From the IMG/VR virus record IMGVR_UViG_3300033571_018919, positions 62,001 through 126,000 of that record: 64,000 nt of DNA; one strand, written 5' to 3'. The stretch is from an uncultured virus (IMG/VR IMGVR_UViG_3300033571_018919) (taxonomy: Duplodnaviria > Heunggongvirae > Uroviricota > Caudoviricetes). Numbering within the stretch: position 1 is the first letter of the stretch; every line of letters begins with the position of its first letter. The translations under genes were made by a program, and so were the position numbers. Shown here piece by piece: positions 30,000-61,969 of this stretch. The notes under the pieces are model-generated. The model ran no database searches, was not told where the DNA came from, and saw only the letters and a program-made list of their open reading frames with translations.

Positions 30000-30872
30000 A
30001 TGACTAAACAAAAATCTAAATCTAAACAAAAGCAATTTGATGTAAATGAACATCTAGATACTCTTAAACCAATATTAGGAACCACAGATACTAAAGTTGG
30101 TGAAATGTTGGTTTACAAGAATGATAACATAATCAGTCTGTCATTAGCATTATATGGCGAGTATTGTCATGCAGAAGTTGACATTATGTCACGCTATTTG
30201 GATAATACTAGTATATATGTTGATGTTGGCACAAACATCGGTTATCATGCCCTCGCAGTGTTTACACAAACAGGATGTCATGTAAGAGGATTCGAACCTC
30301 ACCCTACTCATTTTTCTGTTGCTGCATATAATTGCAGAGATAAACCAATAAGAATTTATAATACGGCAGTGGGAAATAATAATGGTACTATCACTTTACA
30401 AGATTTTGATCCTGAGAGTTTTGGTAATTATGGCGAGATAAAATTTGATAATAGTGGTACAATAAATGCAAGCATTATTAGACTTGATGATTTAGAAGAA
30501 TTAACACATTGTGACTTAATAAAAATAGATGTAGAAGGTTTAGAGCTAGATGTATTGCATGGAGCTACACGACTTTTAAACTCAAGTAGACCTGTTATAT
30601 TTTATGAAGCAATAGATAGAGAAAATTACGAACCTTGCCTAAGCTATTTACGTGATATGCAATATAAACAATATTGGGTTACATGTAGAAACAAACCATT
30701 GGCACCTACTTACAAACAAACAGATGAAAATCCTTTTGAGGCATATGGTGTAAGCAATATTTTAGCAGTACCAGCTGAAAAAGAACAACCAATCGATTTG
30801 GCTCCAGTTGTTGAAGGGGAAAGTTTTTTAGAAATGATTACAAGGTACCAAAATTACAAACTATTGTTTTGA
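30000..30872 (+). CDS. FkbM-family methyltransferase
   Basis: VDVGTNIGYH, GFEP, IKIDVEGLELDVLHGA and RPVIFYE. Confidence 0.9.
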   Translation: MTKQKSKSKQKQFDVNEHLDTLKPILGTTDTKVGEMLVYKNDNIISLSLALYGEYCHAEVDIMSRYLDNTSIYVDVGTNIGYHALAVFTQTGCHVRGFEPHPTHFSVAAYNCRDKPIRIYNTAVGNNNGTITLQDFDPESFGNYGEIKFDNSGTINASIIRLDDLEELTHCDLIKIDVEGLELDVLHGATRLLNSSRPVIFYEAIDRENYEPCLSYLRDMQYKQYWVTCRNKPLAPTYKQTDENPFEAYGVSNILAVPAEKEQPIDLAPVVEGESFLEMITRYQNYKLLF

Positions 30873-31477
30873 TCAGTTATATAGCTAAATTCAATCACAA
30901 AAACTATTCTAGGCTCATCACTTTTATGCTCTGATACTGTATGCCACGCTTTAGTTTCGTGAAATAATAAATCACCCTCTTTAATATTTTGCCATATTAA
31001 ATTTTCTGATTTTATTTCATGATTTCTAGCATGAGCCCACCCATCTTTTACGAATCCAAAGTCTGCACTATTATGCGGGGCTAACGGATAAAAAACTGCC
31101 ATGGCATGGCTATCAGGATCGTGATCATGCACGTTTCCTGAACAGCCCTTCCAAATTTTATTTGTCCAAGCTCTAAAATATTTTATACCGGTTGCATTAG
31201 GATGTCCAAAATAATCACTAACACTTAATGCCTGTTTTTCAAACCACTTCTTAAATGGTTCTATTCCTTCAACATTTTTAAATAAGAAATAATTCTCTAA
31301 TCTAAATGTACTAATACCTACACCGTTTTGATCTTCTAAACAAGGACATAATTTAGGATCAGAAAATAGCTTATCTAAACCTTCAGTAATAGTTGGTCCT
31401 TTATAAATTGCTTCATCATCGCAATGTGTTCTTGCTACTTTATAATCAAATACGTTATATCTTTGCATTATTTCCAC
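30854..31477 (-). CDS. Fe(II)/2-oxoglutarate oxygenase-like protein
   Basis: AWTN...HDH...AVFY...EGDLLFH...WHTV...EPRIVF double-stranded beta-helix pattern. Confidence 0.7.
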   Translation of the reverse strand: MEIMQRYNVFDYKVARTHCDDEAIYKGPTITEGLDKLFSDPKLCPCLEDQNGVGISTFRLENYFLFKNVEGIEPFKKWFEKQALSVSDYFGHPNATGIKYFRAWTNKIWKGCSGNVHDHDPDSHAMAVFYPLAPHNSADFGFVKDGWAHARNHEIKSENLIWQNIKEGDLLFHETKAWHTVSEHKSDEPRIVFVIEFSYITDQNNSL

Positions 31478-32034
31478 CTTGGATATTTATTTAAAACTTC
31501 GTAAAACTTATCGGGAAACAATTCCCAAACTGTCTGTTCGTGGCCTCTGTAAAAAACTGTTTTAACCCTTCTCATCATACCTTCTTTTTCCATCAATGGC
31601 GCAAATATATTGTGAACCTTACGTTGCGTTCCAATTTCTGATTCATTGCTTGTAATGTATAATTTAGAATTTTTTGGGGCCCATTCAATGCATTTGGGAA
31701 TTAAAAATTGTGCTGTTGGATTTTGATTATCTGTAATTACTTTTTTTGTGCGTAAAGCAGATCCGTAAGAACCATCTATTTTGTCTGTGAATACGCATGT
31801 CCTAGCAGCTATCCTATAGGAATTAGGGCCCATTACATCATCAAAACTATGAGCAGCTACACTACCTATTGCATCATTTTTATAATACAATATCCAAATT
31901 TGTTTTTCTCTTTCATTGCTAAAGCAATCAACTAATTTTTCTTTGCTTATATTGTTGATAAATCCCCTACGTGAAGCTTCAGCGTAGAATTCAGATAAGT
32001 CTAAATTTTTATCCCATGCAATTAAATTAAACAT
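31468..32034 (-). CDS. Hypothetical protein, possible GNAT-like acyltransferase
   Basis: WILYY..AIGSVAAH...YRIAARTC...LYITSN strand order recalls GNAT; TAAATA 5 nt upstream of the ATG. Confidence 0.5.
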   Translation of the reverse strand: MFNLIAWDKNLDLSEFYAEASRRGFINNISKEKLVDCFSNEREKQIWILYYKNDAIGSVAAHSFDDVMGPNSYRIAARTCVFTDKIDGSYGSALRTKKVITDNQNPTAQFLIPKCIEWAPKNSKLYITSNESEIGTQRKVHNIFAPLMEKEGMMRRVKTVFYRGHEQTVWELFPDKFYEVLNKYPRWK

Positions 32035-32039
32035 TTAAA

Positions 32040-32074: not shown

Positions 32075-32977
32075 ATGCAAACGATCAATTCTGAACTCAT
32101 TAATTCTAATCCTAATTATCAAAAATATTTTCCATTTCTGACTTCTGAAACTTATGTTCCCAAAATTGAACCAAAATTTCATTTAAATTGGGGAAAGGAT
32201 TTTAACGTATTTTGTATTGGTAGTTGCTTTGCTAGAGAGATTGAACTAGAACTACAACATAAAAATTGTAATGTACAAACGTTAGTACCACTGGCCTCTT
32301 TTGAAAATAATGGATTAATGTCGTTGATGAATGAATACAATGCAGGTTCTATAGCCCAACGAATTAAATGGGCGTTTGAATCGAATGATATTGGCGACAA
32401 AAGCATTTATTTAAAAAATGAAAAATATGTAGACCTACTTTTAAATAGTGAAAAGTCACATGATATAGAATGGATTATTGAAAGAAGAAAAAGAATTAAT
32501 GAAGTATATAAAACCCTTCCTGACGCAAATCTCGTAATTATTACTTTAGGATTAACTGAAGTATGGTATGATAAAGAAACTAATTTTTATTTAAATAGAA
32601 TACCACCTTTTAATGTTGATCCATCGAGGTACGAATTAAGAATTTTAGATGTAAAAAATTGTTTTGAGTTATTAAACACAGCACTTAAGAAAATTACAGA
32701 TATTAATATTCCAATAGTCTTGACCATAAGCCCGGTACCCTTAAAGGTTACATTTAGTGGTAAAGATCCTATAATAGCGAATGAAGAAAGTAAAAGCACC
32801 TTACGTTTAGTTGCATCAATGTTATCTGATTCTAATCCTTTAATTGATTATTTTCCTTCATTTGAGACAGTCAAAATAGGAGGATTAGAAAACTACTATG
32901 ATGGCGGAATTCACGTTAAATTTGAATTGGTTGAAGAAATAGTAAATCATATGATTAACCTATATCAAGCCTCTTAA
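32075..32977 (+). CDS. GSCFA-domain protein (SGNH-like)
   Basis: Literal IGSCFA motif, ITLGLTEVW, LTISPVPL, SKSTLR and YFPSFE. Confidence 0.9.
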   Translation: MQTINSELINSNPNYQKYFPFLTSETYVPKIEPKFHLNWGKDFNVFCIGSCFAREIELELQHKNCNVQTLVPLASFENNGLMSLMNEYNAGSIAQRIKWAFESNDIGDKSIYLKNEKYVDLLLNSEKSHDIEWIIERRKRINEVYKTLPDANLVIITLGLTEVWYDKETNFYLNRIPPFNVDPSRYELRILDVKNCFELLNTALKKITDINIPIVLTISPVPLKVTFSGKDPIIANEESKSTLRLVASMLSDSNPLIDYFPSFETVKIGGLENYYDGGIHVKFELVEEIVNHMINLYQAS

Positions 32978-33638
32978 TAAAATCTTCAGGATAGTTGTTT
33001 CTAAAACTTTGCCAACAAAGTTTTTCTAGTAAAGAAAATGGTTGAGGTTGATCCCAAACTATACCTAATTTTTCTGTGTTCTCTTTTAGTATATTTCGTC
33101 TTGTAGAATAAATGTGGCTTTCAACATCTTTAATACTAAACCATGGCTCAGATTCATGATAAGTAAAAAAATAGTTAATACTTTTTAGTTTACCATCCAC
33201 TACAAAATAACTGCTGGGGTGCATACTATATTTGTATAATCCTAAAGATTTATGAGCCCTAATAATGTTTAACATTTGATCTTGCCAATCAGGTAATACA
33301 CTATCATAATTTTCTGTAACACAACCAGCTCGCTCCCAAAAATCAGGACCGTCTATTTCTAAATAAATCTTTTTATTGATTAAATCAATCTGTTTTATTT
33401 TAGGAACCAAATTAGGATATTCATTAGACATTAAATAGATGTATTGTAATTCTCTAGCCCATTTTTCTTCCATTTTTTCAGGGTCTACTACCTCATTTTG
33501 TCCCTTATGATATTCTGTGTCATTATAATACCACTGTACAAACGTTTTTTTGTCCTCTGAAATAAGGCTTGTGTAAATTAAATTGTTTCTACATTGTCCA
33601 ACATTAGGAACATTATTATAATAATAATTATAGTTCAT
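32955..33638 (-). CDS. Protein-kinase-like fold protein (degenerate catalytic loop); paralog of 47588-48247
   Basis: WARELQY...VPKIKQID...KIYLE...KYSMHPSSYFVVDGKLKSINYF. Confidence 0.5.
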   Translation of the reverse strand: MNYNYYYNNVPNVGQCRNNLIYTSLISEDKKTFVQWYYNDTEYHKGQNEVVDPEKMEEKWARELQYIYLMSNEYPNLVPKIKQIDLINKKIYLEIDGPDFWERAGCVTENYDSVLPDWQDQMLNIIRAHKSLGLYKYSMHPSSYFVVDGKLKSINYFFTYHESEPWFSIKDVESHIYSTRRNILKENTEKLGIVWDQPQPFSLLEKLCWQSFRNNYPEDFIKRLDIG

Positions 33639-34134
33639 CTAAAAATTCTGTAACTTGTAGTACATATCTTGTTGTGTAGCCAATGTTTGCAGACCCATGA
33701 TAAGCATCTTGTTTTGCATAAGCAAAAACATCTCCTGCTTTATAGTTCGTAATTAACTCATCGTTAATTATAAAAACATGCCCTGATTCGTAATCAGTCC
33801 ATGGCATCCAGTATCTCACTACATTTTTTTCTACGTCAGGATCTTGATGCATATTCATATATTGTGCAGGCATCATTTTAACCATCCACCAATAATAATT
33901 ATTGGTAGTTATCCAAGGAGGAACAATATCAAATGGAACATTAGTGTGTTTAAAATACCAAAAATGCACCGCCGTCATATCATAACCAGATTCTGCTGCA
34001 CGTTTATAAACGTTAGTATGATATTGATCTATTGGAATCGAAGGTGGACGCGGTTGTCCTTGAGTGTTTTTAAAGAACTCTATCCACTCAGGTTTCACCC
34101 AATCAATGTAGTTGCCGATATATCGTAATCCCAT
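33628..34134 (-). CDS. Fe(II)/2OG oxygenase-like protein (cupin/beta-helix)
   Basis: KMMPAQYMNMHQD...RYWMP...YHGSANIG facial triad HxD...H. Confidence 0.7.
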   Translation of the reverse strand: MGLRYIGNYIDWVKPEWIEFFKNTQGQPRPPSIPIDQYHTNVYKRAAESGYDMTAVHFWYFKHTNVPFDIVPPWITTNNYYWWMVKMMPAQYMNMHQDPDVEKNVVRYWMPWTDYESGHVFIINDELITNYKAGDVFAYAKQDAYHGSANIGYTTRYVLQVTEFLDEL

Positions 34135-34139
34135 TCAAA

Positions 34140-34169: not shown

Positions 34170-34174
34170 TTTTA

Positions 34175-34975
34175 ATGATAAGAGGAATTAATAATAAACC
34201 ATATTTTGATATGGAAGCATATATCGATATGGATACATTTGATACACTACAGCCAGAAATTTATCGTGGTTTTGCAGAAGCAAGAGAATTCGCCAAAGAA
34301 GGCACATGGATGACGCCAGGCTTTACATTTGAAAATATGAGTTATCAATTATCATGGAAGCCTATATATCAATCAATACAAGATTTTTTAGCATTACCCG
34401 ATGATGATCCAATTAAACAAGGTGGTATTGATCTATATCGTGACTTTGATAACTTTGAAATAAGAAATAAATTTACTAGGTATGTGAAGATGGCTATGGG
34501 AGGATACGATCCATACATCTATTATTTTTTATGGGAACAAGGCTCATGGGATGATAGAACTGCTCCTAGAAAACTAACACCAGAGGCAAAGTATTTTCCT
34601 AACGTAGTAAATTGGGTAGAAAAAATGACAGGATCAATATTTACTGATATAGGTCGTGTTATATTTTTTCACTGTGAAGCAGATGGAATCCCTTTTGAAC
34701 ACAGAGACCTAGATGCAAAAAATGGCATCAATGTTGTTAAACCTCATCGTAATGAATTTATTCACATTCGTCCTAACACAAAAAAAGCTTTTTATATTTG
34801 GGACCCTGAAAAGAAAAATAAAATTTACATTAATACTAGAGCTGCTTGGTGGAATGATACAGATTGGCACGGCGGAGAACGTATTATGGAACAAAGTTAT
34901 GCTCTAAGAATTGATGGCACATTTACAGATGAATTTCGTAAAAAATTAGGTATAAGTAATTTAGAATATTATTAA
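34175..34975 (+). CDS. Fe(II)/2OG oxygenase-like protein
   Basis: GRVIFF...FEHRD...WNDTDWHG...YALRIDG HxD...H triad. Confidence 0.6.
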   Translation: MIRGINNKPYFDMEAYIDMDTFDTLQPEIYRGFAEAREFAKEGTWMTPGFTFENMSYQLSWKPIYQSIQDFLALPDDDPIKQGGIDLYRDFDNFEIRNKFTRYVKMAMGGYDPYIYYFLWEQGSWDDRTAPRKLTPEAKYFPNVVNWVEKMTGSIFTDIGRVIFFHCEADGIPFEHRDLDAKNGINVVKPHRNEFIHIRPNTKKAFYIWDPEKKNKIYINTRAAWWNDTDWHGGERIMEQSYALRIDGTFTDEFRKKLGISNLEYY

Positions 34976-36096
34976 AATTTGTCAATAAGATCCGGAACCA
35001 TATCAAACAAATCTAATTTTCTTTCTTCGGCTAGTCTTAAAGAATTTATTTGAAAAGCCTTCCATTTTTCATCTGACGATTCTTTTTTATAAAGATATTT
35101 TATACTATCATCAAACGGATTACTATTTTTAGCCCAAATACCAGTAACAGAATCTCTCCAAATTTTTAATTTTTTCTCAAGACCCTTTTTATACTCATTT
35201 GGAATAATTGATATTTCTTGCCAATTTGGATTATTTAAAAAATCAAAATCAAATACTATATTTGGAAATTTATGCTTCATTTCAACAACAAAGTCTCCTA
35301 AGGTCCATATATTATAGCAATTTATAACAGTATGGCACATCAAAATTATATTGGGAAAGTTCTCCCATCTTTCGTAGTATTTTCGAATATTGTTTTCTAC
35401 TGTTTTATTATCTGTAGGCCATCTATACCACTCATTTACTGATCCTAAACCATCAACGCTTAAAAAATAATGAACAGCTTTGCATTTTTCTAATAATGTT
35501 AATAATTTGTCATTTGGAAAAATAGTACAATTTGTTGTTAATGTAAAGGTTAAATTTTCTAATTTTGTTTTTTCTAATAAAGATATACACTTATCTTGTT
35601 CTAATAATGGTTCTCCTCCTACAATTTTTAACACACTCAATTTTTGTAAATCTAATTGTGCGTAATTAAAATTTGTTGATACTTTTTGAGGTTGTATCAA
35701 TATTCTTTTGTGTTTAAAATCTTCAGCACCCCATTTAGATGAAAGTTGTGAATCACAATGCACACATGCAAGATTGCATGTATTACTGAATCCGATATCT
35801 AAAAATTCTAATTGGACATCTTTTGGTTCTTTAAACCATTCAAGAAACATTTTTCTATTACTAGTAGATCCTAATTTTTCTGAGTTATAGCATTTTTGAC
35901 AGCCCTCAATCGGCCGTCCCTCTAACATATTTTTTCTAATATTTTCCCAACTCTCACTATTTAAAAAATCTATTTTGACGGTTGATTCTTTTAAAAATTT
36001 TTCATTTGGAGAAAAACTACAACATGGTCGTACAGAATCATCTGGAAAAACTGCTGCTGCCAACCACGGCGCTGTACAAATAGTAGAGTTAGTCAT
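34972..36096 (-). CDS. Radical SAM protein with N-terminal twitch/SPASM-like Cys domain
   Basis: CTAPW...RPCC...GCQKC followed by CNLACVHC and GGEPLL. Confidence 0.9.
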   Translation of the reverse strand: MTNSTICTAPWLAAAVFPDDSVRPCCSFSPNEKFLKESTVKIDFLNSESWENIRKNMLEGRPIEGCQKCYNSEKLGSTSNRKMFLEWFKEPKDVQLEFLDIGFSNTCNLACVHCDSQLSSKWGAEDFKHKRILIQPQKVSTNFNYAQLDLQKLSVLKIVGGEPLLEQDKCISLLEKTKLENLTFTLTTNCTIFPNDKLLTLLEKCKAVHYFLSVDGLGSVNEWYRWPTDNKTVENNIRKYYERWENFPNIILMCHTVINCYNIWTLGDFVVEMKHKFPNIVFDFDFLNNPNWQEISIIPNEYKKGLEKKLKIWRDSVTGIWAKNSNPFDDSIKYLYKKESSDEKWKAFQINSLRLAEERKLDLFDMVPDLIDKF

Positions 36097-36650
36097 GTAG
36101 TTTGATAAGATTTTTCAGCAAAGTTTTTTAACTCTAGGGTTTCTTTTAAAGTAAATTCAATCGAAAATATTTTTGGTATTTTTAACCACAAATCAATAAC
36201 ATCATTTATTTCACTAAAAGTGGTAATATATTTTGAATCTACTTTAATTGGCAAGGTTGCATTTTCGCAAAAGGATAATTTTAGGTATAATATATTGCAT
36301 ACGTTTTTATCTGAATTCTTAGATAATTTTTTACACTGGTTTTCTAATTGTAACTTATTTTCATATTCAATATCTAATCGGGAATAATCAGCACTTACTG
36401 ATCCTAATACTATCATATTACCTACCTGTGTATAAAGACTATTTAACAAATTAAGCTGTCCATTTTTACTACAAGCACAGTTTACAAATATGTCACACTG
36501 ATTAGCTTGGTCTATTATTTTATCGAAATCATTATTGATATCATATCCATTTGATCTTGACATTCCTTTGACTTCAAATCCCTTAGAGATAAAATGATTG
36601 TATATTGATTTTCCTATTCCATTTGTATGCCCTGTAACAATGCATTTCAT
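36093..36650 (-). CDS. Short-chain dehydrogenase/reductase-like protein
   Basis: IVTGHTNGIG Rossmann motif, DIFVNCA and YENK. Confidence 0.75.
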   Translation of the reverse strand: MKCIVTGHTNGIGKSIYNHFISKGFEVKGMSRSNGYDINNDFDKIIDQANQCDIFVNCACSKNGQLNLLNSLYTQVGNMIVLGSVSADYSRLDIEYENKLQLENQCKKLSKNSDKNVCNILYLKLSFCENATLPIKVDSKYITTFSEINDVIDLWLKIPKIFSIEFTLKETLELKNFAEKSYQTT

Positions 36651-36651: not shown

Positions 36652-37839
36652 TTAAATATCCTTTAAGGAATTAAATACACGGTCTGATAATGTCTGAAAA
36701 TATTCATCATCAGCAATAGTTGGAGCAACTAAACTTATGTTTTTTGCTTCTAACGCCCATCCACCTAATCCGGTTATACCATTTTCTAAAAATTTATTAA
36801 CATCAATTTTTTTAATAGTATTCGCATAAAAAATTAAACCTTCACAATAAAATTTTTCTATCCAACCTTTTTTGACTAGAGAATTACCAAAATCTTTTAA
36901 GTTTGACTCTATTTCTATAATTTTATTTGTATCAAATAAATCTAATACTCCTAACGCTGCCCCAACACCTGCCATATTTGGTTGCCAAGTATGGCTGTAA
37001 TAATGACTATTTTTTATAACTTCGGCAATCTTTTGATTTGTACATGCGCAACTAAGAGGACTAAATCCTCCTGTAAAGGCTTTACCTAATACTGTAATGT
37101 CAGGCTGTATATTAAATTTTTTGAAACTAAAGTATTCTCCTAATTTTCCTACCCCGCCCATTACATCGTCTAGTATTAAATTTATTTGATATTGATTACA
37201 TATTTGTTTTAGAGTTATATGAAAATTCTGACTCCATGGCATTATTCCATTTAACCATGGAATAGATTCATATATAATCGCACCAATATTAGGATTTAAA
37301 ATAATCTGATCTACTACTTGCTTTAATAAATTACTTTCTTGTTCTTCTCTGCTTATTTCATTTTGCCAATTAGGTGCATCAAGAACAATAAATTTATCCA
37401 TATATTCTTCTTTTCTCATTGCACGTTCAATGTAGGTAGTTCCATGCCAACCAGGGGAAAAACATATCACTTTATTTTTGTTTACACCTAAATTTCTCCA
37501 ATAAGTATCATTCATAGCAATAGCACATTCAACTCCATCGCTTCCGCTTACTGCCCAAGCAAGCGCAGAATAATCACCTTCAGTACATATCTTTTCAATT
37601 ATTTCATTATTTTCTTTGCAATATTCATTTGGTTTACAGTGAACGTAGGCAATTTTGTCTTGTAATTCTCTCATACGTTGCTTGATGTGAGTGTTATCAA
37701 ATCCAAAAATAAATGCTGTGTTGCCCATGTGAGCATCTAGTAGTTTACCAATGCTGGTGTGAACATAATATTTTTCAGTTTTGTAAACTTCTATTTGTTG
37801 TTTTTCTGTAAGAGGAATGGTTAGTTCTTGAAAATTCAT
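36652..37839 (-). CDS. Class III PLP-dependent aminotransferase
   Basis: SGSDGVE, GWHG, LILDDVMGGVGK, PDITVLGKAFTGG and HTW. Confidence 0.9.
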   Translation of the reverse strand: MNFQELTIPLTEKQQIEVYKTEKYYVHTSIGKLLDAHMGNTAFIFGFDNTHIKQRMRELQDKIAYVHCKPNEYCKENNEIIEKICTEGDYSALAWAVSGSDGVECAIAMNDTYWRNLGVNKNKVICFSPGWHGTTYIERAMRKEEYMDKFIVLDAPNWQNEISREEQESNLLKQVVDQIILNPNIGAIIYESIPWLNGIMPWSQNFHITLKQICNQYQINLILDDVMGGVGKLGEYFSFKKFNIQPDITVLGKAFTGGFSPLSCACTNQKIAEVIKNSHYYSHTWQPNMAGVGAALGVLDLFDTNKIIEIESNLKDFGNSLVKKGWIEKFYCEGLIFYANTIKKIDVNKFLENGITGLGGWALEAKNISLVAPTIADDEYFQTLSDRVFNSLKDI

Positions 37840-40409: not shown

Positions 40410-41039
40410 CTATTTTGTTCCGTAAAACCACAAGAAAGTCAAATCTTTTCCAGTATTTTTGACTTCAAATGTGATGTTTTTAAATCCAATTTCTTCAAAT
40501 ATTAATTTGTATTTTTCTACAGAAGTATGAAAAACTGGTAATGGATAACCAAGATATTCAAAATAATTTTCAAATTCTTCATGTCCTGTAAATTCCTTAC
40601 ATCCTAAAGTTACGTATACAGGCATGTTATGTTTTACCATTTTATAAAACAATTTAAATGATATAATTTGTTTTTCCATAGGCAAATGCATGATTGAGTA
40701 AAAACAAGTTATTAAATCAAATGTGTTTTCAGGAAAGGATAATTCACAGGTATCACACAAAACAGTTTTGGCATTCGGAGCGTGTTTATTTACATATTGT
40801 AATGCTTCACCTGCAATATCAGATCCAGTGACTTCGTGCCCTAAATCATGAAAAAATTTAATTACAGGATATCCAGTCCCGCACCCCGCATCTAAGACTT
40901 TACTTGTTTTTGGTAATTTTGCAGCTAGCCCTTCTAATTGCTCTGTGTTATTAAAGTAAGTGTCTCTTTCAATGTCATGAAAAGATGAAAATTTATTATA
41001 TACACTTGATAGTTCATCGGTTATCTGAAGGTAATTCAT
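40410..41039 (-). CDS. Class I SAM-dependent methyltransferase
   Basis: VLDAGCGTG and FDLITCFYSIMHLP; TAAATA 5 nt before the ATG. Confidence 0.88.
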   Translation of the reverse strand: MNYLQITDELSSVYNKFSSFHDIERDTYFNNTEQLEGLAAKLPKTSKVLDAGCGTGYPVIKFFHDLGHEVTGSDIAGEALQYVNKHAPNAKTVLCDTCELSFPENTFDLITCFYSIMHLPMEKQIISFKLFYKMVKHNMPVYVTLGCKEFTGHEEFENYFEYLGYPLPVFHTSVEKYKLIFEEIGFKNITFEVKNTGKDLTFLWFYGTK

Positions 41040-53480: not shown

Positions 53481-54204
53481 TACTTATAGCCCAATTTCTT
53501 TCTTTACACCAAAAACATATATCACATGTAGGTACATGTTGATTAGGTATGTATGTTTCATAAGTTATCCCTTCAAATTCACCCTCGCAACTTCTTGTTA
53601 TAGAAAATAAGTCTAATAAGTTTCTTTTTCTATATTGTTGAATTACCCAATGTTTCTCAATAAATCTAAATGGGTGTATGGCATATACATTCATGTGCTT
53701 CATTAAACGCAGGTGTTGATTAAATTCAGTAGGATCAATATCTCTTTCTTTCATCCCATCAAAGTTTTTATTTTTTGGATTTCTCGTAACACCATTATAG
53801 TAAGCACTAATTTTATTGTGATAACAAACATATTCACTATACGCACGTATTTGAATATTATCTCCGCTTACTTTTTTACCATATTCGTCCATAAGCACAG
53901 GACCAGTTGCACCATATTCAATATCCGGTGCAATAAAATTTACGTGTCTAGTCCATTCGAACGTTGGAAACTTCTTTGTTAAGTATTCATATACATTTTT
54001 TGAATCATATTCTTGCCATGGTCTAGTTTTCCACATACGAATATGACTTATGATATGAATTTTCAGATTAGGGTTTTCATTTACTGCAAGTGAACATAAT
54101 AGATATGCTAATAGCGCCGAATCGGCACCACCACTTAAACTGACAGCGATACTAGGCCATTCTTTATCATAGGGTATGTTAACGCCGTCTATGTTATATT
54201 CCAT
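53470..54204 (-). CDS. PP-loop ATPase, QueC-like
   Basis: SLSGGADS PP-loop; C-terminal TRSC...CDICFWCKER zinc-type motif. Confidence 0.75.
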   Translation of the reverse strand: MEYNIDGVNIPYDKEWPSIAVSLSGGADSALLAYLLCSLAVNENPNLKIHIISHIRMWKTRPWQEYDSKNVYEYLTKKFPTFEWTRHVNFIAPDIEYGATGPVLMDEYGKKVSGDNIQIRAYSEYVCYHNKISAYYNGVTRNPKNKNFDGMKERDIDPTEFNQHLRLMKHMNVYAIHPFRFIEKHWVIQQYRKRNLLDLFSITRSCEGEFEGITYETYIPNQHVPTCDICFWCKERNWAISNAM

Positions 54205-55048
54205 TTTCTTCTAAATAACGAATTAAAGGTGAAACACCGACTGGCATGCCATTTTTTAATGCTAAATAAATGCTTTTTGTTTCAGTTAAATTAAAGTCCT
54301 TGCAAATTGTCTTATATCTATGTTCATGAGTATTCCAAAGGTAATCAGGTACTAGCTCATCTAAAAAATATGAACCAATCATTACTAATGCCTTATTATT
54401 CATATGGAAATCGTTCATTATTGTAATACTATCGCTATCTTCATTTGACCATCGTAAACCTATTCTGTTCCAACCTAACCCTAATCCTTTACTTAAACTA
54501 ATACCCACCGATTTAATATTTGGGTGATTAAAATCAAATTCTATGTCAGTACATGTTGTAACCCATGCTCCGTCGATATGTACATCAATTTTTTTCTCTG
54601 CACACTCACTGAGTATATCCTGCATATTATTATGTATAGATCCTATTTGTGGAAATGGCATAGCGATAATTAAAGGCACACCATGTATTAAATTTTTTGG
54701 GGTAACAAGGTATGATAAGTTTAATCTACTGTGGTATCTGTAGTCATCAACTAGTGTTTGTACCCGATGGTGCATATAAATGTTATCGATAAATTGAGTG
54801 CATCCGTTAATAATATCTATACGGTTAAATTTTTTCAATCCATATAACGAATTACGTTTAGATTCTGATAACCAATTTACAAATCGAAACTTAAATCTAT
54901 TATAAACCTCATTACTAATGTCTTTGTCCAAACATCCATGCAACACTTGTTGTATTAGAGTGTCAATTTTTTTATCTGTAAGTGGTTGTGGTCTTTCTAT
55001 TTCTAAATACTTACTATCATAATCGGGTGCAATTTTAATTCTATCCAC
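54194..55048 (-). CDS. PLP-dependent transferase-like protein
   Basis: VHIDGAW and ISLSKGLGLGWNRIG fold-type-I PLP lysine motif; GTG start. Confidence 0.7.
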   Translation of the reverse strand: MDRIKIAPDYDSKYLEIERPQPLTDKKIDTLIQQVLHGCLDKDISNEVYNRFKFRFVNWLSESKRNSLYGLKKFNRIDIINGCTQFIDNIYMHHRVQTLVDDYRYHSRLNLSYLVTPKNLIHGVPLIIAMPFPQIGSIHNNMQDILSECAEKKIDVHIDGAWVTTCTDIEFDFNHPNIKSVGISLSKGLGLGWNRIGLRWSNEDSDSITIMNDFHMNNKALVMIGSYFLDELVPDYLWNTHEHRYKTICKDFNLTETKSIYLALKNGMPVGVSPLIRYLEENGI

Positions 55049-55071: not shown

Positions 55072-55740
55072 ATGCTTTCAAAATTGACTCTTTCTGTAGA
55101 CGTAGATAGTTTAGTAAAACAAGTTAGTGAACTTAATTTTGGTAAAAGTTTATCCATTAATTATACCACAGGAAAATTACTTAATGGTCCTTATCTAACG
55201 AAACCCGAATTTCTAAATACTCCTTTAGGAAATATTTTACAATCTATTGAAAATGTAGGTGAAGCTAGATTATTAAAACTAGAAAGTGGAGAATCTTATA
55301 CTGCACATTCTGACCCAGATGATAGAATACATGTTCCTATCATAACCAATCTATATTCTTATATTATGGATTTGGACAACAATAAAATGTATCATTTGCC
55401 TGCTGATGGATCAGTGTGGTATATGGACACAAGTGTTACACATGTGGCAGCAAACTTTGGAGGTAGAACTAGAATACATTTAAACATTCGAGTGCTACTT
55501 CCTAAATTTAAATCCCCTGGCTACAAATTAACTGTTACAGGAGGCGATTATGATTGGAAACAGGAAGCATATTTTACCTTAATGACTTTTTTTAATAAAT
55601 CTATTAAAGAAAGAATTATTACAGGATTTGAAAAGGTAAACGAAAGAGAAGTTTTATTAAATTGTGATCCAATCGTGCTTAATCCTTACATAAAAAAATT
55701 AGAAGATAAAGGGTTTAGTATATCTTTAAGCGCCACATAA
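55072..55740 (+). CDS. Aspartyl/asparaginyl beta-hydroxylase-like Fe(II)/2OG oxygenase
   Basis: ARLLKL..G..YTAHSD..DRIHVPIITN...HVAANFG...RIHL. Confidence 0.75.
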   Translation: MLSKLTLSVDVDSLVKQVSELNFGKSLSINYTTGKLLNGPYLTKPEFLNTPLGNILQSIENVGEARLLKLESGESYTAHSDPDDRIHVPIITNLYSYIMDLDNNKMYHLPADGSVWYMDTSVTHVAANFGGRTRIHLNIRVLLPKFKSPGYKLTVTGGDYDWKQEAYFTLMTFFNKSIKERIITGFEKVNEREVLLNCDPIVLNPYIKKLEDKGFSISLSAT

Positions 55741-56790
55741 ATGACTTTCTACAATTCTGATTTAAAAATTTTAGATATTGAGCCATCTTCTTTTTGTAAT
55801 GCAAAATGTCCTCAATGCATGAGAGAATCACAAAATGGTTCCTATGATTTTTTTAATCAAGTGAATTTAACTGATACTTTTTTTGAGATTTTTTTTCCTA
55901 AACAAGTAGTAATAAATTTAGAAATAGTTTCATTTAGTGGAAATGTGGGGGAACCTACAATGAATAAACATTTGATTGATATTATCAGGTGGTTTAGAAA
56001 ACAAAACCCTAAAATTTATGTAGAAGTATACACGAACGGCAGCGTACAGAAACCAAAGTTTTGGAGCGAATTAGGAGAAGTTATTGGACATAATGGTAAT
56101 GTGATATTTGCCATCGATGGACTAGAGGATACTAATCATATATACCGTATTGGAGTTAAATGGAACCTGCTAATGCAAAATGCAAAAGCATATATAGAAT
56201 CTGGAGCGAAGGCAACATGGCAGTTTATACCTTTTCTACACAACGAGCATCAAGTTGAGTTAGCTAAACAATTAAGTGCAGAAATGGGATTCGATAAATT
56301 TAAAATTAAAATATCACATAGAGATTTATTAAATCAACAGCAAAATGAAAAAACTAGAGTCTATCCACCAAAAAATCCTATGTATACACATAGCGGAAAT
56401 AAACTAGATTTTACTAATCTTGATGTTACTGAAAACTATTTAAATAGTCTAGATATTAAATGTTATGCCATAGAAAATAGTAACTTATATATTTCTGCTG
56501 AAGGTTTAGTGTTCCCTTGTTGTCACACGGCTAGCATTATACTTTTAGATGATAATATGGTACCTGAACCGTATAGTTGGATTAGGAAAACAAAAAGTCA
56601 ATTTAATCTTAATGAAATTAATTTACATAACAATACTCTAGAACAAATTTTAAAATCAGTTACCTTTAATGAAATTAAAGAGTCATGGAACAAAGACATT
56701 AGCGTAGGAAAAAATGCAATATGTGCAGCGATTTGCGGCAAATGTAAAAATAACAAAAGTCTTATAGAAAATCTATTGCACCATGAATAA
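55741..56790 (+). CDS. Radical SAM protein with C-terminal SPASM/twitch; paralog of 57705-58790
   Basis: CNAKCPQC, GNVGEP, TNG, FAIDGL, FPCC and C-terminal CxxxC. Confidence 0.9.
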   Translation: MTFYNSDLKILDIEPSSFCNAKCPQCMRESQNGSYDFFNQVNLTDTFFEIFFPKQVVINLEIVSFSGNVGEPTMNKHLIDIIRWFRKQNPKIYVEVYTNGSVQKPKFWSELGEVIGHNGNVIFAIDGLEDTNHIYRIGVKWNLLMQNAKAYIESGAKATWQFIPFLHNEHQVELAKQLSAEMGFDKFKIKISHRDLLNQQQNEKTRVYPPKNPMYTHSGNKLDFTNLDVTENYLNSLDIKCYAIENSNLYISAEGLVFPCCHTASIILLDDNMVPEPYSWIRKTKSQFNLNEINLHNNTLEQILKSVTFNEIKESWNKDISVGKNAICAAICGKCKNNKSLIENLLHHE

Positions 56791-57721
56791 ACTAATAAAA
56801 ATAGAAATAGCTAATCCTAATGCATTGCGTATTAATTTTGTAATGACACGTAGTTGCACCTACGAATGTAGATATTGTCCGGATGATCTACATTACGGTA
56901 CACATAGAGATATAAACTTAAATGATTTAAAACTGTTTCTTAGTAGATTTACGGATAGAAATACGGCCGTTCAATTGACAGGTGGTGAATGCACTACTCA
57001 TCCACAATTTGAGGAAGTTATAAAATTAATTAAAGACTTTAATTATAATGTACTAGTGGATTCTAACAGTGTTAGGACATTGCGCTTCTACGATGAAGTA
57101 AAACATTTAGTAGATAATTGGTGCATAACATTACATCCTAGTCAACATAAATTAGATTTAGAAAAATTAAAATTATTATCACAACATTCTTTTCTAGTGA
57201 TTTATGTTATGATGGATCCTAATTATTGGGAGATATCATTAGACTGGTTTGATCAAATATCAAAATTAAAAGATTTAAAAGTAACACCAATCCGAGTTAT
57301 GAACAATTGGGGAGGTGCAAATTTTCACGCTAATTACAGTGACGAACAATTAGAGTATTTGTCAAAGGCAGAATCTAAATGGCTTTTTACTGTTGAACGA
57401 GAAACAGAATTAAGAAAAACTCACATGTGGTTAGCGGATACAGAATCTATAGCAACAGACACTACTGGAAACAGGGTTACACTAGATCCATTTAAAATGA
57501 TACGCACAGGCACAAACAATTTTTATGGTTGGCAGTGTAAAGCCGGTAATGAATCAATATGCATATTTGATGACGGCAAAGCCATATGGGCAAATTGTGG
57601 GATTAAAAAATTTAACCATTACTTAGAGTTGACTCCTGAAATAATGGCTGAACCACTGAAATGTAATTTTTTAGCTTGTTCATGTGCTACTGATATTCGA
57701 GCCTCTAAGTCAAAGAATTAG
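56783..57721 (+). CDS. Radical SAM protein with C-terminal SPASM-like Cys cluster
   Basis: CTYECRYC, LTGGEC and C-terminal CKAG...C...CNFLACSC. Confidence 0.88.
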   Translation: MNKLIKIEIANPNALRINFVMTRSCTYECRYCPDDLHYGTHRDINLNDLKLFLSRFTDRNTAVQLTGGECTTHPQFEEVIKLIKDFNYNVLVDSNSVRTLRFYDEVKHLVDNWCITLHPSQHKLDLEKLKLLSQHSFLVIYVMMDPNYWEISLDWFDQISKLKDLKVTPIRVMNNWGGANFHANYSDEQLEYLSKAESKWLFTVERETELRKTHMWLADTESIATDTTGNRVTLDPFKMIRTGTNNFYGWQCKAGNESICIFDDGKAIWANCGIKKFNHYLELTPEIMAEPLKCNFLACSCATDIRASKSKN

Positions 57722-58790
57722 TTTCTATCCACTGATCATTGGGTTGACTTATATCTACATTTTTAAATTCACCGCATACTCTGGCACAGGTAATTAATTT
57801 TTCTTCATTCCATTTTTTGTGCCAAATATTTTGCCAAATTTCAGAATCAATCACATTTTTTATTCCGTTTAGTGCATTAAGTTTTTCTACACCACCAAAA
57901 TCTTCAATTAGTTTAGTGTATTGATTTTTTATATCTTCGCTTACATTATGATTGATATATTCAGGATCATAGTATGTATAGGGTATGGAACTTACCCAAC
58001 AACAAGGAAGTATGGTTTTGTATGCGTCAATGTAGATTTCTTTAAGATTTAAAACATGGCAGTTAATTTTTGCCTCAGCTATAAGTTGTTTATAAGAATT
58101 AATTACCTCTTTTGGCATAAACTTAATAGTAGTTTCAGTTGGGGGTTCAATTGTATGTGTATAGTTTCCTTCTTTATCTACAACATCGTATTTTGGTTCT
58201 ACTAAAAAGCGTGAACTATTTTTTACAACAAATTTTGAGAAACCTAAACTTTTGGCTACTACCCTACATTCTTCTGTTTGATGCTCATTGTGTTTAAATT
58301 TTATAAATGTCCATTCGGCGATTCCCCCTGCATCAATAAAAGCTTTTGCATTTTTTATTACAGTATTGTAATTAGTGCCTATCCTATATAATGAATGCGT
58401 ATCAACTAATCCGTCAAGTGCGAAATGAACACAGTGATCTACAGGAAGTGCCTTAGCTAAATCTATCCACCATGACGGCTTTCTAGCTCCGCCATTGGTG
58501 TGTATGGCAATTCGTACATTTGGATTCACATGTTTGATGTACACACACATTTCTATTAGGTCATCATGCAGCATAGGATCACCAAAATTGCCGCAAAAAT
58601 ATATACATCGGACTAAGTTTAAAATTTCAGGAGAGATGATCTTTTTAAACTCAATTAGTGTCCACTGAGTTAATTTTAAATATGGATTAGGCAACCCACC
58701 GTGATGATTTCTGGCACACATGGGGCACCTTGCCTGACAATTATTAGTTAGCTCTATGTGAATAGATTTTAATTCATTAAATTTAAACAT
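57705..58790 (-). CDS. Radical SAM protein with C-terminal SPASM/twitch
   Basis: CQARCPMC, GNFGDP, HTNG, FALDGL, LPCC and CARVC. Confidence 0.9.
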   Translation of the reverse strand: MFKFNELKSIHIELTNNCQARCPMCARNHHGGLPNPYLKLTQWTLIEFKKIISPEILNLVRCIYFCGNFGDPMLHDDLIEMCVYIKHVNPNVRIAIHTNGGARKPSWWIDLAKALPVDHCVHFALDGLVDTHSLYRIGTNYNTVIKNAKAFIDAGGIAEWTFIKFKHNEHQTEECRVVAKSLGFSKFVVKNSSRFLVEPKYDVVDKEGNYTHTIEPPTETTIKFMPKEVINSYKQLIAEAKINCHVLNLKEIYIDAYKTILPCCWVSSIPYTYYDPEYINHNVSEDIKNQYTKLIEDFGGVEKLNALNGIKNVIDSEIWQNIWHKKWNEEKLITCARVCGEFKNVDISQPNDQWIETNSLT

Positions 58791-59409
58791 TCGCCTTTCC
58801 TATAATCATGTATCTGTCATACAATGGCAATTCAAGTTTTTTTGCATTATAAACATGTAGTTTGCATTGATCTATAAAATGAGTTAAACTATTGGCAATT
58901 CGTATGTGTTCATCAATTTTGTAATTATTACTTTGTACTACAATCAAACTATTGTGCGGTAAACAAGTTAACCATGTATCATATTGTTCTTGTGTAATGT
59001 GTTCACAACTAGTGTTGATAATAATATCTGCATTACTGTGAATTGCACACATATCCGATGTAATTGCTGTAAATCTTCCTTGCATTTCTTCTTTTTTATT
59101 CATAGTTCTAGCTATTTCTTCACAACTAGGATCTATATCGATGGTACGAATATACTTAATAGAAATTTTACTTTGAAAAAGAAAACTAGCAAGAGTGCCG
59201 ACCCACCCGCCGTGTATGTCAATACTGACAGGAAAATTTAAACTTTTATCTTGTTCTGAACTGATAAAACTTTCTAAAGTTTCAATTAACCACTCTTTGC
59301 TTTGTATCTGTCCTCGCCAAAAGGCGTCTAGTGTACGTTTGGGGTCTTTGCTCTCACGAATGGCACACATCCAATAATGCAAGTGTTCAGTGTCTATATT
59401 CATGTTCAA
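58783..59409 (-). CDS. Class I SAM-dependent methyltransferase-like protein
   Basis: IHGGWVG, TIDID and IINTSCEH. Confidence 0.65.
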   Translation of the reverse strand: MNMNIDTEHLHYWMCAIRESKDPKRTLDAFWRGQIQSKEWLIETLESFISSEQDKSLNFPVSIDIHGGWVGTLASFLFQSKISIKYIRTIDIDPSCEEIARTMNKKEEMQGRFTAITSDMCAIHSNADIIINTSCEHITQEQYDTWLTCLPHNSLIVVQSNNYKIDEHIRIANSLTHFIDQCKLHVYNAKKLELPLYDRYMIIGKANV

Positions 59410-60396
59410 CTATTCTGTTAACTTGCATTTTGGTATTTTGCTATCTGCCGAACTCACACAGCTAGGGGTTATACACTTTTTTGGCGAGCCAAATAATTTA
59501 AAACCATCAGTTAATGTTCCTAATGGTTGGTCGTGGCAACTATAACTTCTTTTAATTTCATCTCCCCGTATTATAACACTTTGATACCCTGAATTGCAAT
59601 ACCAACCTTTAAAATTATTAAAACCAAAAGAATTAAATCTTTCTGCTTGGTCAAACAAGTACTCATTGTTGTCTTGGTCATACAAGCTTATTTGATATAT
59701 TTCTTGCTCCTTTGCCTTTTGGGGGAACCCATTTTGCATTATTGCAATCATTTCGTTTGTGTATCCATCTACAATTGCACTGGCGGTGTCGTTACTCTGT
59801 GGCTTTAGTGTGACATTGATTCCTTTATCATGAAATCTATTACACCTATCATACAACTCATAAAATTGATCTGGTACCATAACTTGATTAATGGTTACGT
59901 GAACATTTTCTCCCATTAAGAATAAACATTTTTCTGCAAATTCATTTTCATTCGCAAACTCACTATGATAACTTGCAGTAATTGATTTGCGTTGAAATAG
60001 TTCAGTAGACATGCACCAATTTCCCCACCATTTTTTGCTTGGACTTAAATTAGTAGTCATGTGTATACTTTGGTATGGGGTGATACCATCTTCAAGGTAT
60101 TTTAATAAAGATAATAAATGTTTATAAGCAGTTGGTTCTCCGCCACTAAAGGACCAATGAAATTTATTAAATCTATTTTGCCTTGCTTGAGTTTTTATTG
60201 AATCTATTGTTTGAATGTATTTTTGAAAATCCGAATAGTCAGGCGTTTGGCTATTAGCATAAGGCCAACAATAGCTGCACTTATAATTACAGAACCTACC
60301 AAGAATCCAACTAATATTAAAGACATCATCTTTTATTAAAGTTTGTTGACCAAATTTTACTATTTTCTCAAATGGAATTTTTGTAAAATCGATCAT
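59410..60396 (-). CDS. Radical SAM protein with C-terminal SPASM-like Cys cluster
   Basis: CNYKCSYC, FSGGEP, TTN and C-terminal CNSG...SC...CITPSC; start placed at MIDFTK (the ORF track extends to 60423). Confidence 0.88.
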   Translation of the reverse strand: MIDFTKIPFEKIVKFGQQTLIKDDVFNISWILGRFCNYKCSYCWPYANSQTPDYSDFQKYIQTIDSIKTQARQNRFNKFHWSFSGGEPTAYKHLLSLLKYLEDGITPYQSIHMTTNLSPSKKWWGNWCMSTELFQRKSITASYHSEFANENEFAEKCLFLMGENVHVTINQVMVPDQFYELYDRCNRFHDKGINVTLKPQSNDTASAIVDGYTNEMIAIMQNGFPQKAKEQEIYQISLYDQDNNEYLFDQAERFNSFGFNNFKGWYCNSGYQSVIIRGDEIKRSYSCHDQPLGTLTDGFKLFGSPKKCITPSCVSSADSKIPKCKLTE

Positions 60397-61969
60397 ACTG
60401 TTCTTTGAGCCAGTCGTAGTCATTTATCCTTTTTAATACTTCTGTATCATTCTTGTTAGCCATCGCAAATTCTTTGCCTGCAATAGCTCCGTCAATTGCA
60501 AATTCGCCGTACTTCTTATCTTTGCCTACTGTACACCAAACGTTTAATCTGTCGTTAGTTTCAATTGAGTTTTGTCTATCAATTATTTGACTTGCTAACT
60601 TTACGCATTCTCTAAATGCACTTCGCCATGTATTGAATGGATCCGTATTAAAATTAGTATAATTACTTAGTTTAATTACAGGTTCGTATAAATTACTTAT
60701 ACTTGTAGTCATATCAGGTTTATTAGTTTGCATATGTAACGTGTAGAATCTGGGTAATAGCTTTACACCACCGTACCCATATATTAACCCATTAATTGGA
60801 TTAACGCTGCGCCAAACTCTAACTTTGGCTTGTTCATAAAAAGGTACACTAAAATCAAAAGAAAAATCATCAACTAATGATGCATCGGCATCTACTACCC
60901 AAAAATAATCTGTTTTTGCAATCTTAGCAGCAGCAATGTGTGCTTGATGTATCCCTGCTATGCCGTCAATTCTTTTTGCTTTTGGATATTTTTTAAGTAC
61001 TAGTTCAAAATTTTTTTCAGCGTTTGGTTCACCGTAGCTTATGAATATTACGTCAAATTCACCTGGGTATTTGTATTTTATAAATGTTTCAGGACTTCTT
61101 CTGCTTACAGGAATTTCTTCTTTGTATTCTTTGCTAGCATTTGGTTGAAATACATCTACAATTCTTCCATCATTTGTTATAGAACTTAACGATCTACCTA
61201 ATCGATTACATTCAAACAATATATCATCTTTATATAATTCATACTGAGCTTCAAATAGGTTATCTAAATGTTCAAAATCTTTGATATCCCCTATATTAAA
61301 ATTTTGTTTTGACAATGCGATATATGCTGCCTGCCTGGCGCCCAATATAGCCCAAACTCCATTTTCAACGTCTGTGCCTAAATGCATCCATCTCCAAAGT
61401 CTTTCATAATTTCTCCAGTTGATTTCTGAAATTTCTTTTACGAATATATCATTTTCCATACATAGTTTGATGCCTTCCCTAAACCCACTTCTCCAAGCTT
61501 GCTTTGGACTTGAATTTATGTTTACATCACTTAAACTACGATTTAATTGTAGATAATTTTTAAAATCAAAATCAACACTATTAGGATTGGAGCTGTTTTC
61601 ATGGGTACGCATAGTTTTCAGTTTTTCTACTGGCCAAACTTTGATACCACCGTTACCATACGTATTTCCATTAATGTTGTTTTTACCACTAAAGCTTATT
61701 ACACTGTCGGATACGTTTACGGTATCGACTAGATTCAGTTCAATTTGCAATAAATTATCGTGTACGTAGTTATCACCATCAACAATAATAACGTGACTAT
61801 GATTTTCAACAAGATTTGCAACAGCTTTGTGTGCAGTGTCGCTTCCCTTTATATTGTCAACACGCAGTGCATTTGGACAAATTTCTAGTAAGCGTAAGTA
61901 ATTGGCTTCTTTGTTTTCCTCTTGATAACTTAGAAAAACGACTGGATAATTTTGAATTTTGAATAGCAT
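60368..61969 (-). CDS. Internally duplicated GT-A-like (DxD) glycosyltransferase
   Basis: Two homologous halves, each with F.SY.E.N...AH...VD(G/A)D...NG..YG.GG.K..P...WRS.FRE..KL; TAAATA 5 nt before the ATG. Confidence 0.6.
   Translation of the reverse strand: MLFKIQNYPVVFLSYQEENKEANYLRLLEICPNALRVDNIKGSDTAHKAVANLVENHSHVIIVDGDNYVHDNLLQIELNLVDTVNVSDSVISFSGKNNINGNTYGNGGIKVWPVEKLKTMRTHENSSNPNSVDFDFKNYLQLNRSLSDVNINSSPKQAWRSGFREGIKLCMENDIFVKEISEINWRNYERLWRWMHLGTDVENGVWAILGARQAAYIALSKQNFNIGDIKDFEHLDNLFEAQYELYKDDILFECNRLGRSLSSITNDGRIVDVFQPNASKEYKEEIPVSRRSPETFIKYKYPGEFDVIFISYGEPNAEKNFELVLKKYPKAKRIDGIAGIHQAHIAAAKIAKTDYFWVVDADASLVDDFSFDFSVPFYEQAKVRVWRSVNPINGLIYGYGGVKLLPRFYTLHMQTNKPDMTTSISNLYEPVIKLSNYTNFNTDPFNTWRSAFRECVKLASQIIDRQNSIETNDRLNVWCTVGKDKKYGEFAIDGAIAGKEFAMANKNDTEVLKRINDYDWLKEQYDRFYKNSI

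Follow-up and report, generated by a model that had tools for sequence, protein, structure and literature searches.

A late-promoter island of radical SAM enzymes in a T4-like jumbo phage has a conserved core with a Bdellovibrionota counterpart and may decorate virion proteins

What does a phage make with thirteen radical S-adenosylmethionine (SAM) enzymes? The question is raised by 64,000 nucleotides (the window) of the uncultured virus IMGVR_UViG_3300033571_018919, part of a 127-kb viral record, where 33 intact open reading frames (ORFs; named below by their first position in the window) occupy both strands of positions 30854-61969 with gaps of no more than 40 bp. A sequence-only reading had proposed a 31-kb biosynthetic island that chemically decorates virion proteins or glycans. 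We find that the island is a real, conserved and uncharacterised pathway, and that its carrier is a T4-like jumbo phage. The best reading of its function, at a rough probability of 0.48 and thus just short of an even chance, is a virus-encoded system that glycosylates virion proteins late in infection and adds radical tailoring.

The radical SAM motif CxxxCxxC occurs in 13 of the 33 ORFs, while 1000 shuffles gave a mean of 0.1 and a maximum of 2, and all 13 proteins score above the PF04055 cut-off, which confirms the number originally reported. The genes are not degenerate, an outcome that the sequence-only reading had allowed for: they are intact and constrained, with saturated synonymous sites (pS 0.62-0.83) and pN of 0.10-0.26 in core genes against their closest relatives, in a comparison in which 5 of 34 genes lacked a full-length relative.

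To follow island content among related phages, relatives were fetched in a single scan with 52218, which found 58 viral loci including that of this phage. The other 57 each carry 2-10 ORFs with the radical SAM motif (median 7) and display a common core with variable cassettes. Loci that reach 20 kb are here called full-length; all 29 of them contain the families of 50396, 48279, 57705 and the query 52218, followed by the families of 55072 (27), the kinase-fold proteins (25), 54194 (23), 34175 (22), 58783 (21), 59410 (20) and 53470 (19). B12-type and zinc-ribbon radical SAM proteins, SGNH proteins and others vary among loci, gene order and strand are shuffled between phages, and cassettes of relatives include carbamoyl-, amidino- and sulfotransferases; a family that we take to be amidinotransferase-like from its motif is found in 5 of 57 loci. 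Thus the 33-ORF island stands as described, but not as one fixed unit: it is a lineage-wide core plus variable cassettes.

The core comprises two N-terminal twitch radical SAM proteins matching NF033640, 48279 (48279..49673, + strand; orthologs in Bdellovibrionota are 41-50% identical) and 52218 (52218..53480, -); a radical SAM protein with C-terminal twitch-type cysteines, 50396 (50396..51304, -; PF04055); the type B radical SAM protein 57705 (57705..58790, -; PF04055); the radical SAM protein 59410 (59410..60423, -; PF04055); and, by motif, the putative SAM-dependent methyltransferase 58783 (58783..59409, -), of a family without a name. A further type B radical SAM/SPASM protein, 55741 (55741..56790, +; PF04055), also belongs to a family present in 29 of 29 full-length loci. 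None of the 13 radical SAM proteins reaches the cut-off of a model with a known reaction, and no island gene passes that of a known cofactor-pathway model; mapping to independent cofactor pathways was the other outcome that had been considered damaging. This bears on the notion that the island is a landing zone where auxiliary metabolic genes collect without relation to each other or a common product, which was the earlier reading for radical SAM genes of Campylobacter phages (PMC2853527; literature is cited throughout for the excerpts consulted). Shuffled order and strand would suit it, but no gene passes a cofactor-pathway cut-off, the same five families occur together in phage and bacterial loci, and promoter design is common to the island. 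We regard a landing zone as extremely unlikely.

The identity of the carrier and the timing of the island come from two further records. A 221-kb record (G001; estimated completeness 61%, 17 radical SAM matches) is identical to the window over 21,260 compared bases and represents the same phage, and a 353-kb relative (G002), 99% complete, is a T4-like myovirus by its gp23, portal, terminase and sheath. Both encode a gp55-type late sigma factor. In the window, the hexamer TAAATA starts 10-16 nt upstream of the initiation codon in eight out of eight divergent-leading island genes, and likewise before 40410, 30854 and 60368. Counted at 8-16 nt before the start across the viral loci, it occurs at 134 of the 252 divergent-leading genes as against 14 of the 820 co-oriented ones, and five control hexamers were found at 2-13 of the 252. 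These counts and the gp55 genes bear out the late-type promoters claimed earlier: judged by its sequence, the island carries the gp55-type promoter class of the T4-type late regulon and is probably switched on late in infection. The T4 late promoter geometry provides the basis for reading the peak at 10-11 nt as a sign of nearly leaderless messages. In G002, TAAATA precedes sheath, tube, baseplate, terminase and several glycosyltransferase genes; no copy is listed ahead of helicase, gp32, recA, thyA, folE, queD or queE, but these absences count for little, because operon-internal genes would lack the hexamer anyway. Spacing differs between classes of genes, with the hexamer 10-11 nt before the ATG of enzyme genes and mostly 24-37 nt before structural genes. 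Gaps of 23-40 bp, for example window 34134-34175, hold two back-to-back promoters.

The last island gene, 60368 (60368..61969, -; late promoter), encodes two fused domains of predicted GT-A glycosyltransferase fold with DxD, in keeping with the double glycosyltransferase proposed originally. The model of the C-terminal domain has a pLDDT (predicted local distance difference test score) of 91 and contains the DxD motif; its top Foldseek matches are all glycosyltransferases, and structural comparison with the GT-A fold gave a Z score of 11.3 and a root-mean-square deviation of 3.0 over 139 aligned residues. Because GT-A proteins are likely scaffold builders, the lack of a scaffold synthase described earlier is probably only apparent. 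Further glycosyltransferase and sugar genes are found beyond the island, both at window 13.7-21 kb and in a second radical SAM cluster of G001. The former is a separate locus (13702..20946, +) with GT25, GT2, cytidylyltransferase, PfkB, cupin and methyltransferase genes, directly behind giant fibre-like genes; TATAAATA precedes its start at 13702. The latter (G001:C1:9721-19777, locus L060) is formed by the four extra radical SAM genes of G001, all of the N-terminal twitch type, along with an SGNH-like gene, a carbamoyltransferase gene and a 793-residue GT-A fusion, and it is joined to a structural operon.

The linkage to tail genes is clearest in the isolated Ralstonia jumbo phage RsoM2USA (MG752970; PMC8504454), which gave the sole match to the GT-A domain or to 52218 among 50,697 phage records. 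A co-oriented run in this phage contains sheath, epimerase, one unknown gene, tube, a virion-type protein and two GT8-like genes (a weak glycogenin match, E 0.015), and continues with GT-A, N-terminal twitch radical SAM, GT-A and 58783-type methyltransferase genes, so that a module resembling the island core stands directly after tail genes. RsoM2USA also has a second cluster of N-terminal twitch, SGNH and carbamoyltransferase genes, and its ORFs 199-203 and 348-353 are homologous to the second cluster of G001. Unlike the island, it has only a minimal module, in which all genes are annotated as hypothetical. The glycosyltransferase part of an RsoM2USA-type run leads straight into the island in G002 and into the second radical SAM cluster in G001. 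G002 encodes nucleoside diphosphate (NDP)-sugar pathways and at least six glycosyltransferase families; the lineage thus has its own glycosyltransferase and NDP-sugar genes, as virus-encoded virion glycosylation requires.

Searches of GTDB with the 48279 profile identified at least 255 confirmed stretches, and among the best 78 loci that were kept Bdellovibrionota dominate. Of the 26 loci with at least 41% identity to 48279, 22 have the type B radical SAM family of 57705 and 21 that of 59410; the methyltransferase is encoded in 15 loci, the GT-A family of 60368 in 13 and the PLP (pyridoxal phosphate) protein in 5. Any glycosyltransferase occurs in 18 of the 26 loci versus 1 of 40 control windows, which were placed at round steps and chosen with earlier results in hand, and the GT2 and SGNH profiles were built from the test loci; analytically, GT2 is expected near about 7% of loci. 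Neighbours in bacterial loci include GT2, GT4, GT8, SGNH, carbamoyltransferase and ABC-2 exporter genes. With the GT-A fold and the tail-run linkage in RsoM2USA, G001 and G002, these neighbours strengthen the link between island and glycosyltransferases that was first suggested by flanking genes. Some bacterial loci adjoin housekeeping genes, such as one for a tRNA deaminase and others that are presumably a primase and a sigma factor gene, and for this reason look chromosomal. Five Bdellovibrionota genomes (G006-G010) have 10-19 NF033640 matches each, compared with none in 14 control genomes. The 58783-type methyltransferase is present in 28 of 301 genomes of the phylum, a patchy distribution that resembles that of a variable surface locus.

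In a tree of 48279 orthologs (72 rows, with at most 8 per phage cluster and 44 of the 78 bacterial loci), phage and bacterial clades are separate (Shimodaira-Hasegawa support 100 and 99) and sister-like. Repeated interleaving requires at least five changes for phage rows overall, and long branches meet; the tree gives no direction of transfer. One candidate for the cellular core, a locus in a Haliscomenobacter bin (L146, G310), was set aside as probably a binned jumbo-phage contig, because it has a phage-type module and that genome has two gp23 matches.

The neighbours of the bacterial loci also bear on remodelling of the host envelope (lipopolysaccharide or capsule) against superinfection, the usual interpretation of phage glycosyltransferase clusters (PMC7029224, PMC7824862). 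Cellular relatives do adjoin GT2 and ABC-2 genes. In the phage, however, the promoter class is late, the linkage is to the tail operon, and none of the 33 ORFs has a family match to a membrane or export component, leaving envelope remodelling very unlikely.

Glycosylation of virion proteins would bring these observations together as follows. While particles are assembled, a gp55-type sigma factor would transcribe some ten short units with almost no leader, and IscU and IscA would provide the [4Fe-4S] clusters. The GT-A enzymes (60368 and the tail-operon glycosyltransferases) would attach sugars from NDP-sugars, and the conserved twitch-type radical SAM enzymes with the methyltransferase would act on the sugar, or on a small amino-acid-like group that it carries, to yield an unusual core of constant structure. 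Swappable cassettes of B12-type and zinc-ribbon radical SAM enzymes, oxygenases, aminotransferase and short-chain dehydrogenase/reductase (SDR), GNAT, PP-loop ligase, SGNH/GSCFA and FkbM proteins may then diversify the product between phages in the manner of an O-antigen locus. Tail proteins and the huge Ser/Thr/Asn-rich fibre-like proteins encoded upstream of the island would be the acceptors. One candidate is a Ser/Thr/Asn-rich repeat protein of 4525 residues (64..13641, +) that bears LamG domains and 52 matches to the RCC1 repeat. Its gene is one of a series of giant genes, rich in Asn, Ser, Thr and Gly codons, that cover about 60 kb (window 64-13641 and G000 16124-62063). Enrichment of N-x-S/T sequons in fibre-like proteins (z up to 5) is not counted as evidence, as it arises from two repeated motifs.

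The putative suppliers of Fe-S clusters stand beside the island: IscU (29101-29481, +; Pfam NifU_N) and an IscA-type carrier (29614-29979, +; Pfam Fe-S_biosyn). G002 has a SufC/SufB-like pair (L073:6601-8128) that replaces or accompanies Isc genes and may offer an alternative route of supply. In comparisons with the plasmid collection only, IscU is about 80% identical to beta- and gammaproteobacterial proteins, and a host-like class V aminotransferase of G001 (L063:5665-6846), near genes that we take to be peroxiredoxin-like, is closest, at 68% identity, to a Paraburkholderia protein. These affinities make a proteobacterial host likely and Bdellovibrionota unlikely as the host.

Several observations weigh against virion glycosylation. 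The viral loci are related, several being near-duplicates, and their counts are not independent. Nucleotidyltransferases (chains of MobA/IspD type) share the GT-A fold and, as matches to 60368, tie with glycosyltransferases within 1.2 Z. Only 10 of 57 viral loci have the GT-A gene within the 21 kb that were fetched, several islands ending without it, and it was found in 3 of 10 further fragments (15-35% complete) that were searched whole. In the five bacterial genomes, N-terminal twitch loci are weakly associated with Pfam GT2, 5 of 32 having one within 10 kb where 2.3 are expected (p 0.07). Oxygenase, kinase-fold and PP-loop genes are nearly absent from bacterial loci, and the island may therefore serve more than one product. 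Finally, 55072 (55072..55740, +), an AspH-family beta-hydroxylase by Pfam that has a late promoter and counterparts in 49 of 57 loci, has as its nearest solved relative the caprazamycin-pathway enzyme Cpz10 (PDB 7V4F, E 1.7e-20), which acts on a nucleoside-antibiotic intermediate.

The Cpz10-like hydroxylase is part of a toolkit like those of aminoglycoside and nucleoside-antibiotic clusters, together with a weak match to BlsE (among the PDB matches of the N-terminal twitch profile), the aminotransferase, the kinase-fold proteins and the presumed amidinotransferase-like family of relatives. The product could then be a diffusible aminosugar- or nucleoside-like metabolite, made late in infection or, in Bdellovibrionota, inside prey, for example to block host defence or competitors. 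Iyer et al. described cyanophage modification clusters and left them with the same choice (PMC7824862, section 3.4.10). However, the Cpz10 match extends over residues 44-139, the catalytic core, and no further; family matches reveal no gene for export, resistance or regulation in the island, and the genes are attached to the tail operon and timed so late that a metabolite would have little time to act. A diffusible product is therefore unlikely in our view, although the macromolecular target of the sequence-only reading is itself a hypothesis.

The other oxygenases point to proteins as possible substrates. All six HxD...H oxygenases of the sequence-only reading are present: 55072 and the accessory 30854 (30854..31477, -; PF13759, phrog_81; late promoter) by Pfam, 34175 by its structure model, and three small AspH-like proteins, 33628 (33628..34134, -; late promoter), 43056 (43056..43613, -) and its paralog 45081 (45081..45599, -), by invariant H107, D109 and H163 and a weak PDB match (E 0.0016). 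The conserved 34175 (34175..34975, +; H176, D178, H232), which has a late promoter and occurs in 31 of 57 other loci, matches AspH and prolyl-hydroxylase equally well, with a Z score of about 10. Of the two kinase-like proteins reported, 32955 (32955..33638, -) and its paralog 47588 (47588..48247, -; late promoter), the protein-kinase fold stood up (E 2e-4), but the catalytic HRD aspartate did not, Ser/Thr/Ala-type residues being found in its place; the two-paralog family may have a non-canonical activity.

Such enzymes could modify residues of virion proteins directly, by hydroxylation, epimerisation, methylation or cross-links, with sugars playing a minor part. The best matches of 34175, the kinase-fold proteins without the aspartate and the repetitive Asn/Thr-rich fibre-like proteins would agree with this, as would phage 332-Vera, whose eight radical SAM genes sit in a structural cluster (PMC12390700). 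On the other side, the most conserved cellular partners are a glycosyltransferase and a methyltransferase, and the earlier observation that the island lacks an obvious recognition element of ribosomally synthesized and post-translationally modified peptides (RiPPs) holds: the PqqD-type element (PF05402) was found in none of five records (one of them 99% complete, one a complete isolate, and that of this phage 61% complete), and gaps of at most 40 bp leave no room for a precursor gene within the island. We hold direct residue modification to be improbable.

The same five records were used to consider post-replicative hypermodification of DNA or tRNA. Phages are known to hypermodify bases with radical SAM, PLP, 2-oxoglutarate-dependent and GT-A enzymes (10.1101/2023.12.21.572611; PMC8989533), G002 encodes FolE, QueD and QueE, 53470 is QueC-like, and tRNA genes flank the island (seven at window 62752-63760, including Leu(AAG) and Arg(CCG), and the only hits in an Rfam scan of 28000-64000). 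Nevertheless, no record has a match to TET (PF12851), to the helical domain of 5-hydroxymethyluracil DNA kinase (HMUDK, PF18723) or to Pfam TGT, although no DpdA-specific model was run, and no C5 methylase is found among 255 scanned ORFs of G002, which have a single thymidylate synthase. The folE, queD and queE genes of G002 lie away from the island and lack the late hexamer, and this genome has no match to QueC or TGT; they may form a separate deazaguanine route. Palindromes are strongly avoided (CGCG, 18 seen versus 72 expected in G000; AGCT, 57 versus 765 in G002), as would be expected of DNA exposed to restriction. The core looks chromosomal in bacteria, and a link to tRNA modification was rejected since tRNA genes occur in only 10 of 57 loci. 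The absence of hypermodification markers and the avoided palindromes agree with the initial judgement that DNA precursors are not the target, and nucleic acid modification is very improbable.

Within the radical SAM set, the five paralog groups recognised originally hold up. Three proteins, 48279, 52218 and the accessory paralog 34972 (34972..36096, -), score 382, 340 and 225 bits with NF033640 against a cut-off of 170, and five N-terminal cysteines are conserved in the first two. The B12-type group consists of 37836 (37836..39305, -; PF02310 and PF04055), 45592 (45592..47595, -; nearest model the KedN5-family C-methyltransferase, below cut-off) and 43606 (43606..45084, -; PF04055), the B12-binding domain being above cut-off in the first two and below it in the third. 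A zinc ribbon, HMPTM, is present in the paralogs 39302 (39302..40396, -; PF23545) and 41959 (41959..43056, -; Pfam); their description as Tes-like holds only as a distant relation, with 68-81 bits against cut-offs of 450 (Tes) and 490 (TrsS). The remaining proteins, including the accessory 56783 (56783..57721, +; PF04055), form two C-terminal sets of twitch/SPASM type, which are indeed cysteine-bearing but do not have a full SPASM domain: they keep 4-5 conserved cysteines, and the standard domain has seven. Twitch radical SAM enzymes such as BtrN and NeoN act on sugars, and SPASM/twitch enzymes frequently act on peptides.

Other tailoring proteins were identified with varying certainty. Pfam matches uphold one of the two PLP enzymes, one of the two island methyltransferases and one of the two SGNH-type proteins, namely the class III aminotransferase 36652 (36652..37839, -; PF00202, 131 bits), the class I methyltransferase 40410 (40410..41039, -; late promoter) and the GSCFA protein 32075 (32075..32977, +; PF08885; late promoter). 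The second member of each pair is assigned by motif: the fold-type-I-like 54194 (54194..55048, -; invariant D159 and K187, a late promoter, present in 43 of 57 loci and in Bdellovibrionota as well) and the methyltransferase 58783 lack a significant library match, and the accessory SGNH-like 49627 (49627..50403, -) lacks a Pfam match. Of the two oxidoreductases reported, 36093 (36093..36650, -) is a short SDR-like protein with weak adh_short and SDR matches, and the Rossmann-type 41072 (41072..41962, -) has the motif and weak library matches. The PP-loop ATPase 53470 (53470..54204, -; 35 of 57 loci) retains the PP-loop and four invariant cysteines; its identification as QueC was dismissed, there being no PF06508 or NCBIfam QueC match. 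PDB sequence searches with 53470, 54194, 58783 and the glycosyltransferase domain returned nothing significant. The adjacent FkbM-family methyltransferase gene (30000..30872, +) is confirmed by PF05050 and TIGR01444 above cut-off. Two ORFs were absent from the enzyme list of the sequence-only reading: 31468 (31468..32034, -), a putative GNAT-like acyltransferase by an Atlas lead and alignment, with a late promoter 11 nt before the ATG and relatives in 14 of 57 other loci, and 51301 (51301..52221, -), an accessory protein without an assigned family that has a relative in Bdellovibrionota loci.

Phages rich in radical SAM genes have been reported before. In the T4-like Campylobacter phages CP220 and CPt10 such genes number 11 and 12; their function was never assigned according to the excerpted report, which describes an exchangeable module of 10-12 genes that includes five radical SAM genes and an amidinotransferase gene (PMC2853527). 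CP220 encodes a protein distantly related to 57705 (24% identity); unlike the island, these phages gave no N-terminal twitch or GT-A relative, and the excerpted text describes no oxygenase set (PMC2853527). A marine T4-like genome, TARA_ERS488813_N000010, has 12 radical SAM genes and an A-type Fe-S carrier, presented there as Fe-S-related auxiliary genes and not as a pathway (PMC5332604). Two cases come from other lineages, with no mechanism proposed in the consulted text: Aeromonas phage 332-Vera (PMC12390700) and pelagimyophages, whose host-recognition clusters differ by radical SAM cassettes (PMC7029224). Three island queries against the phage collection matched neither, except for a partial radical SAM match in a Pelagibacter phage. 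Virus-made virion glycans have precedents in mycobacteriophages (as cited in PMC12619734) and in the fibril-glycosylation clusters of Megavirinae, which likewise combine virus-encoded glycosyltransferase and sugar genes, 6-33 in number, with clade-specific content; their glycans are chemically demonstrated, and according to the abstract the clusters are not built around radical SAM enzymes (PMC10117803).

The claim that no characterised pathway has this composition therefore holds for the core, no description of which was found, but must be qualified in that phages with 8-12 radical SAM genes were already on record (PMC2853527, PMC5332604, PMC12390700). The open-licence literature, to which the search was confined, with subscription papers outside it, contained no account of the core, its promoters or its Bdellovibrionota counterpart, and no paper on NF033640, a model whose name gives no reaction. 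Radical SAM-rich phages are known as counts; a defined late module shared with predatory bacteria appears to be new.

In phages with 8-12 radical SAM genes, called highly unusual since 2010 without a function in the reports excerpted here, a count now becomes a testable pathway with a minimal module, a promoter class that sets its timing, a cellular counterpart and a likely class of substrate. The 58783 family alone contains at least 7350 clusters at 90% identity, so this chemistry is common in nature. A bolder proposal, possible but doubtful, is a new class of surface decoration built by radical SAM enzymes, in which the core of twitch-type radical SAM enzymes, methyltransferase and GT-A enzymes would make a new sugar or glyco-amino acid on the host-contact fibres of T4-like jumbo phages, predatory Bdellovibrionota would use the core on their own surface, and thousands of variants would exist, each varied further by swappable cassettes. 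If virion glycosylation is indeed the function, it would extend to jumbo phages, provide the first function for NF033640 and add many new radical enzymes.

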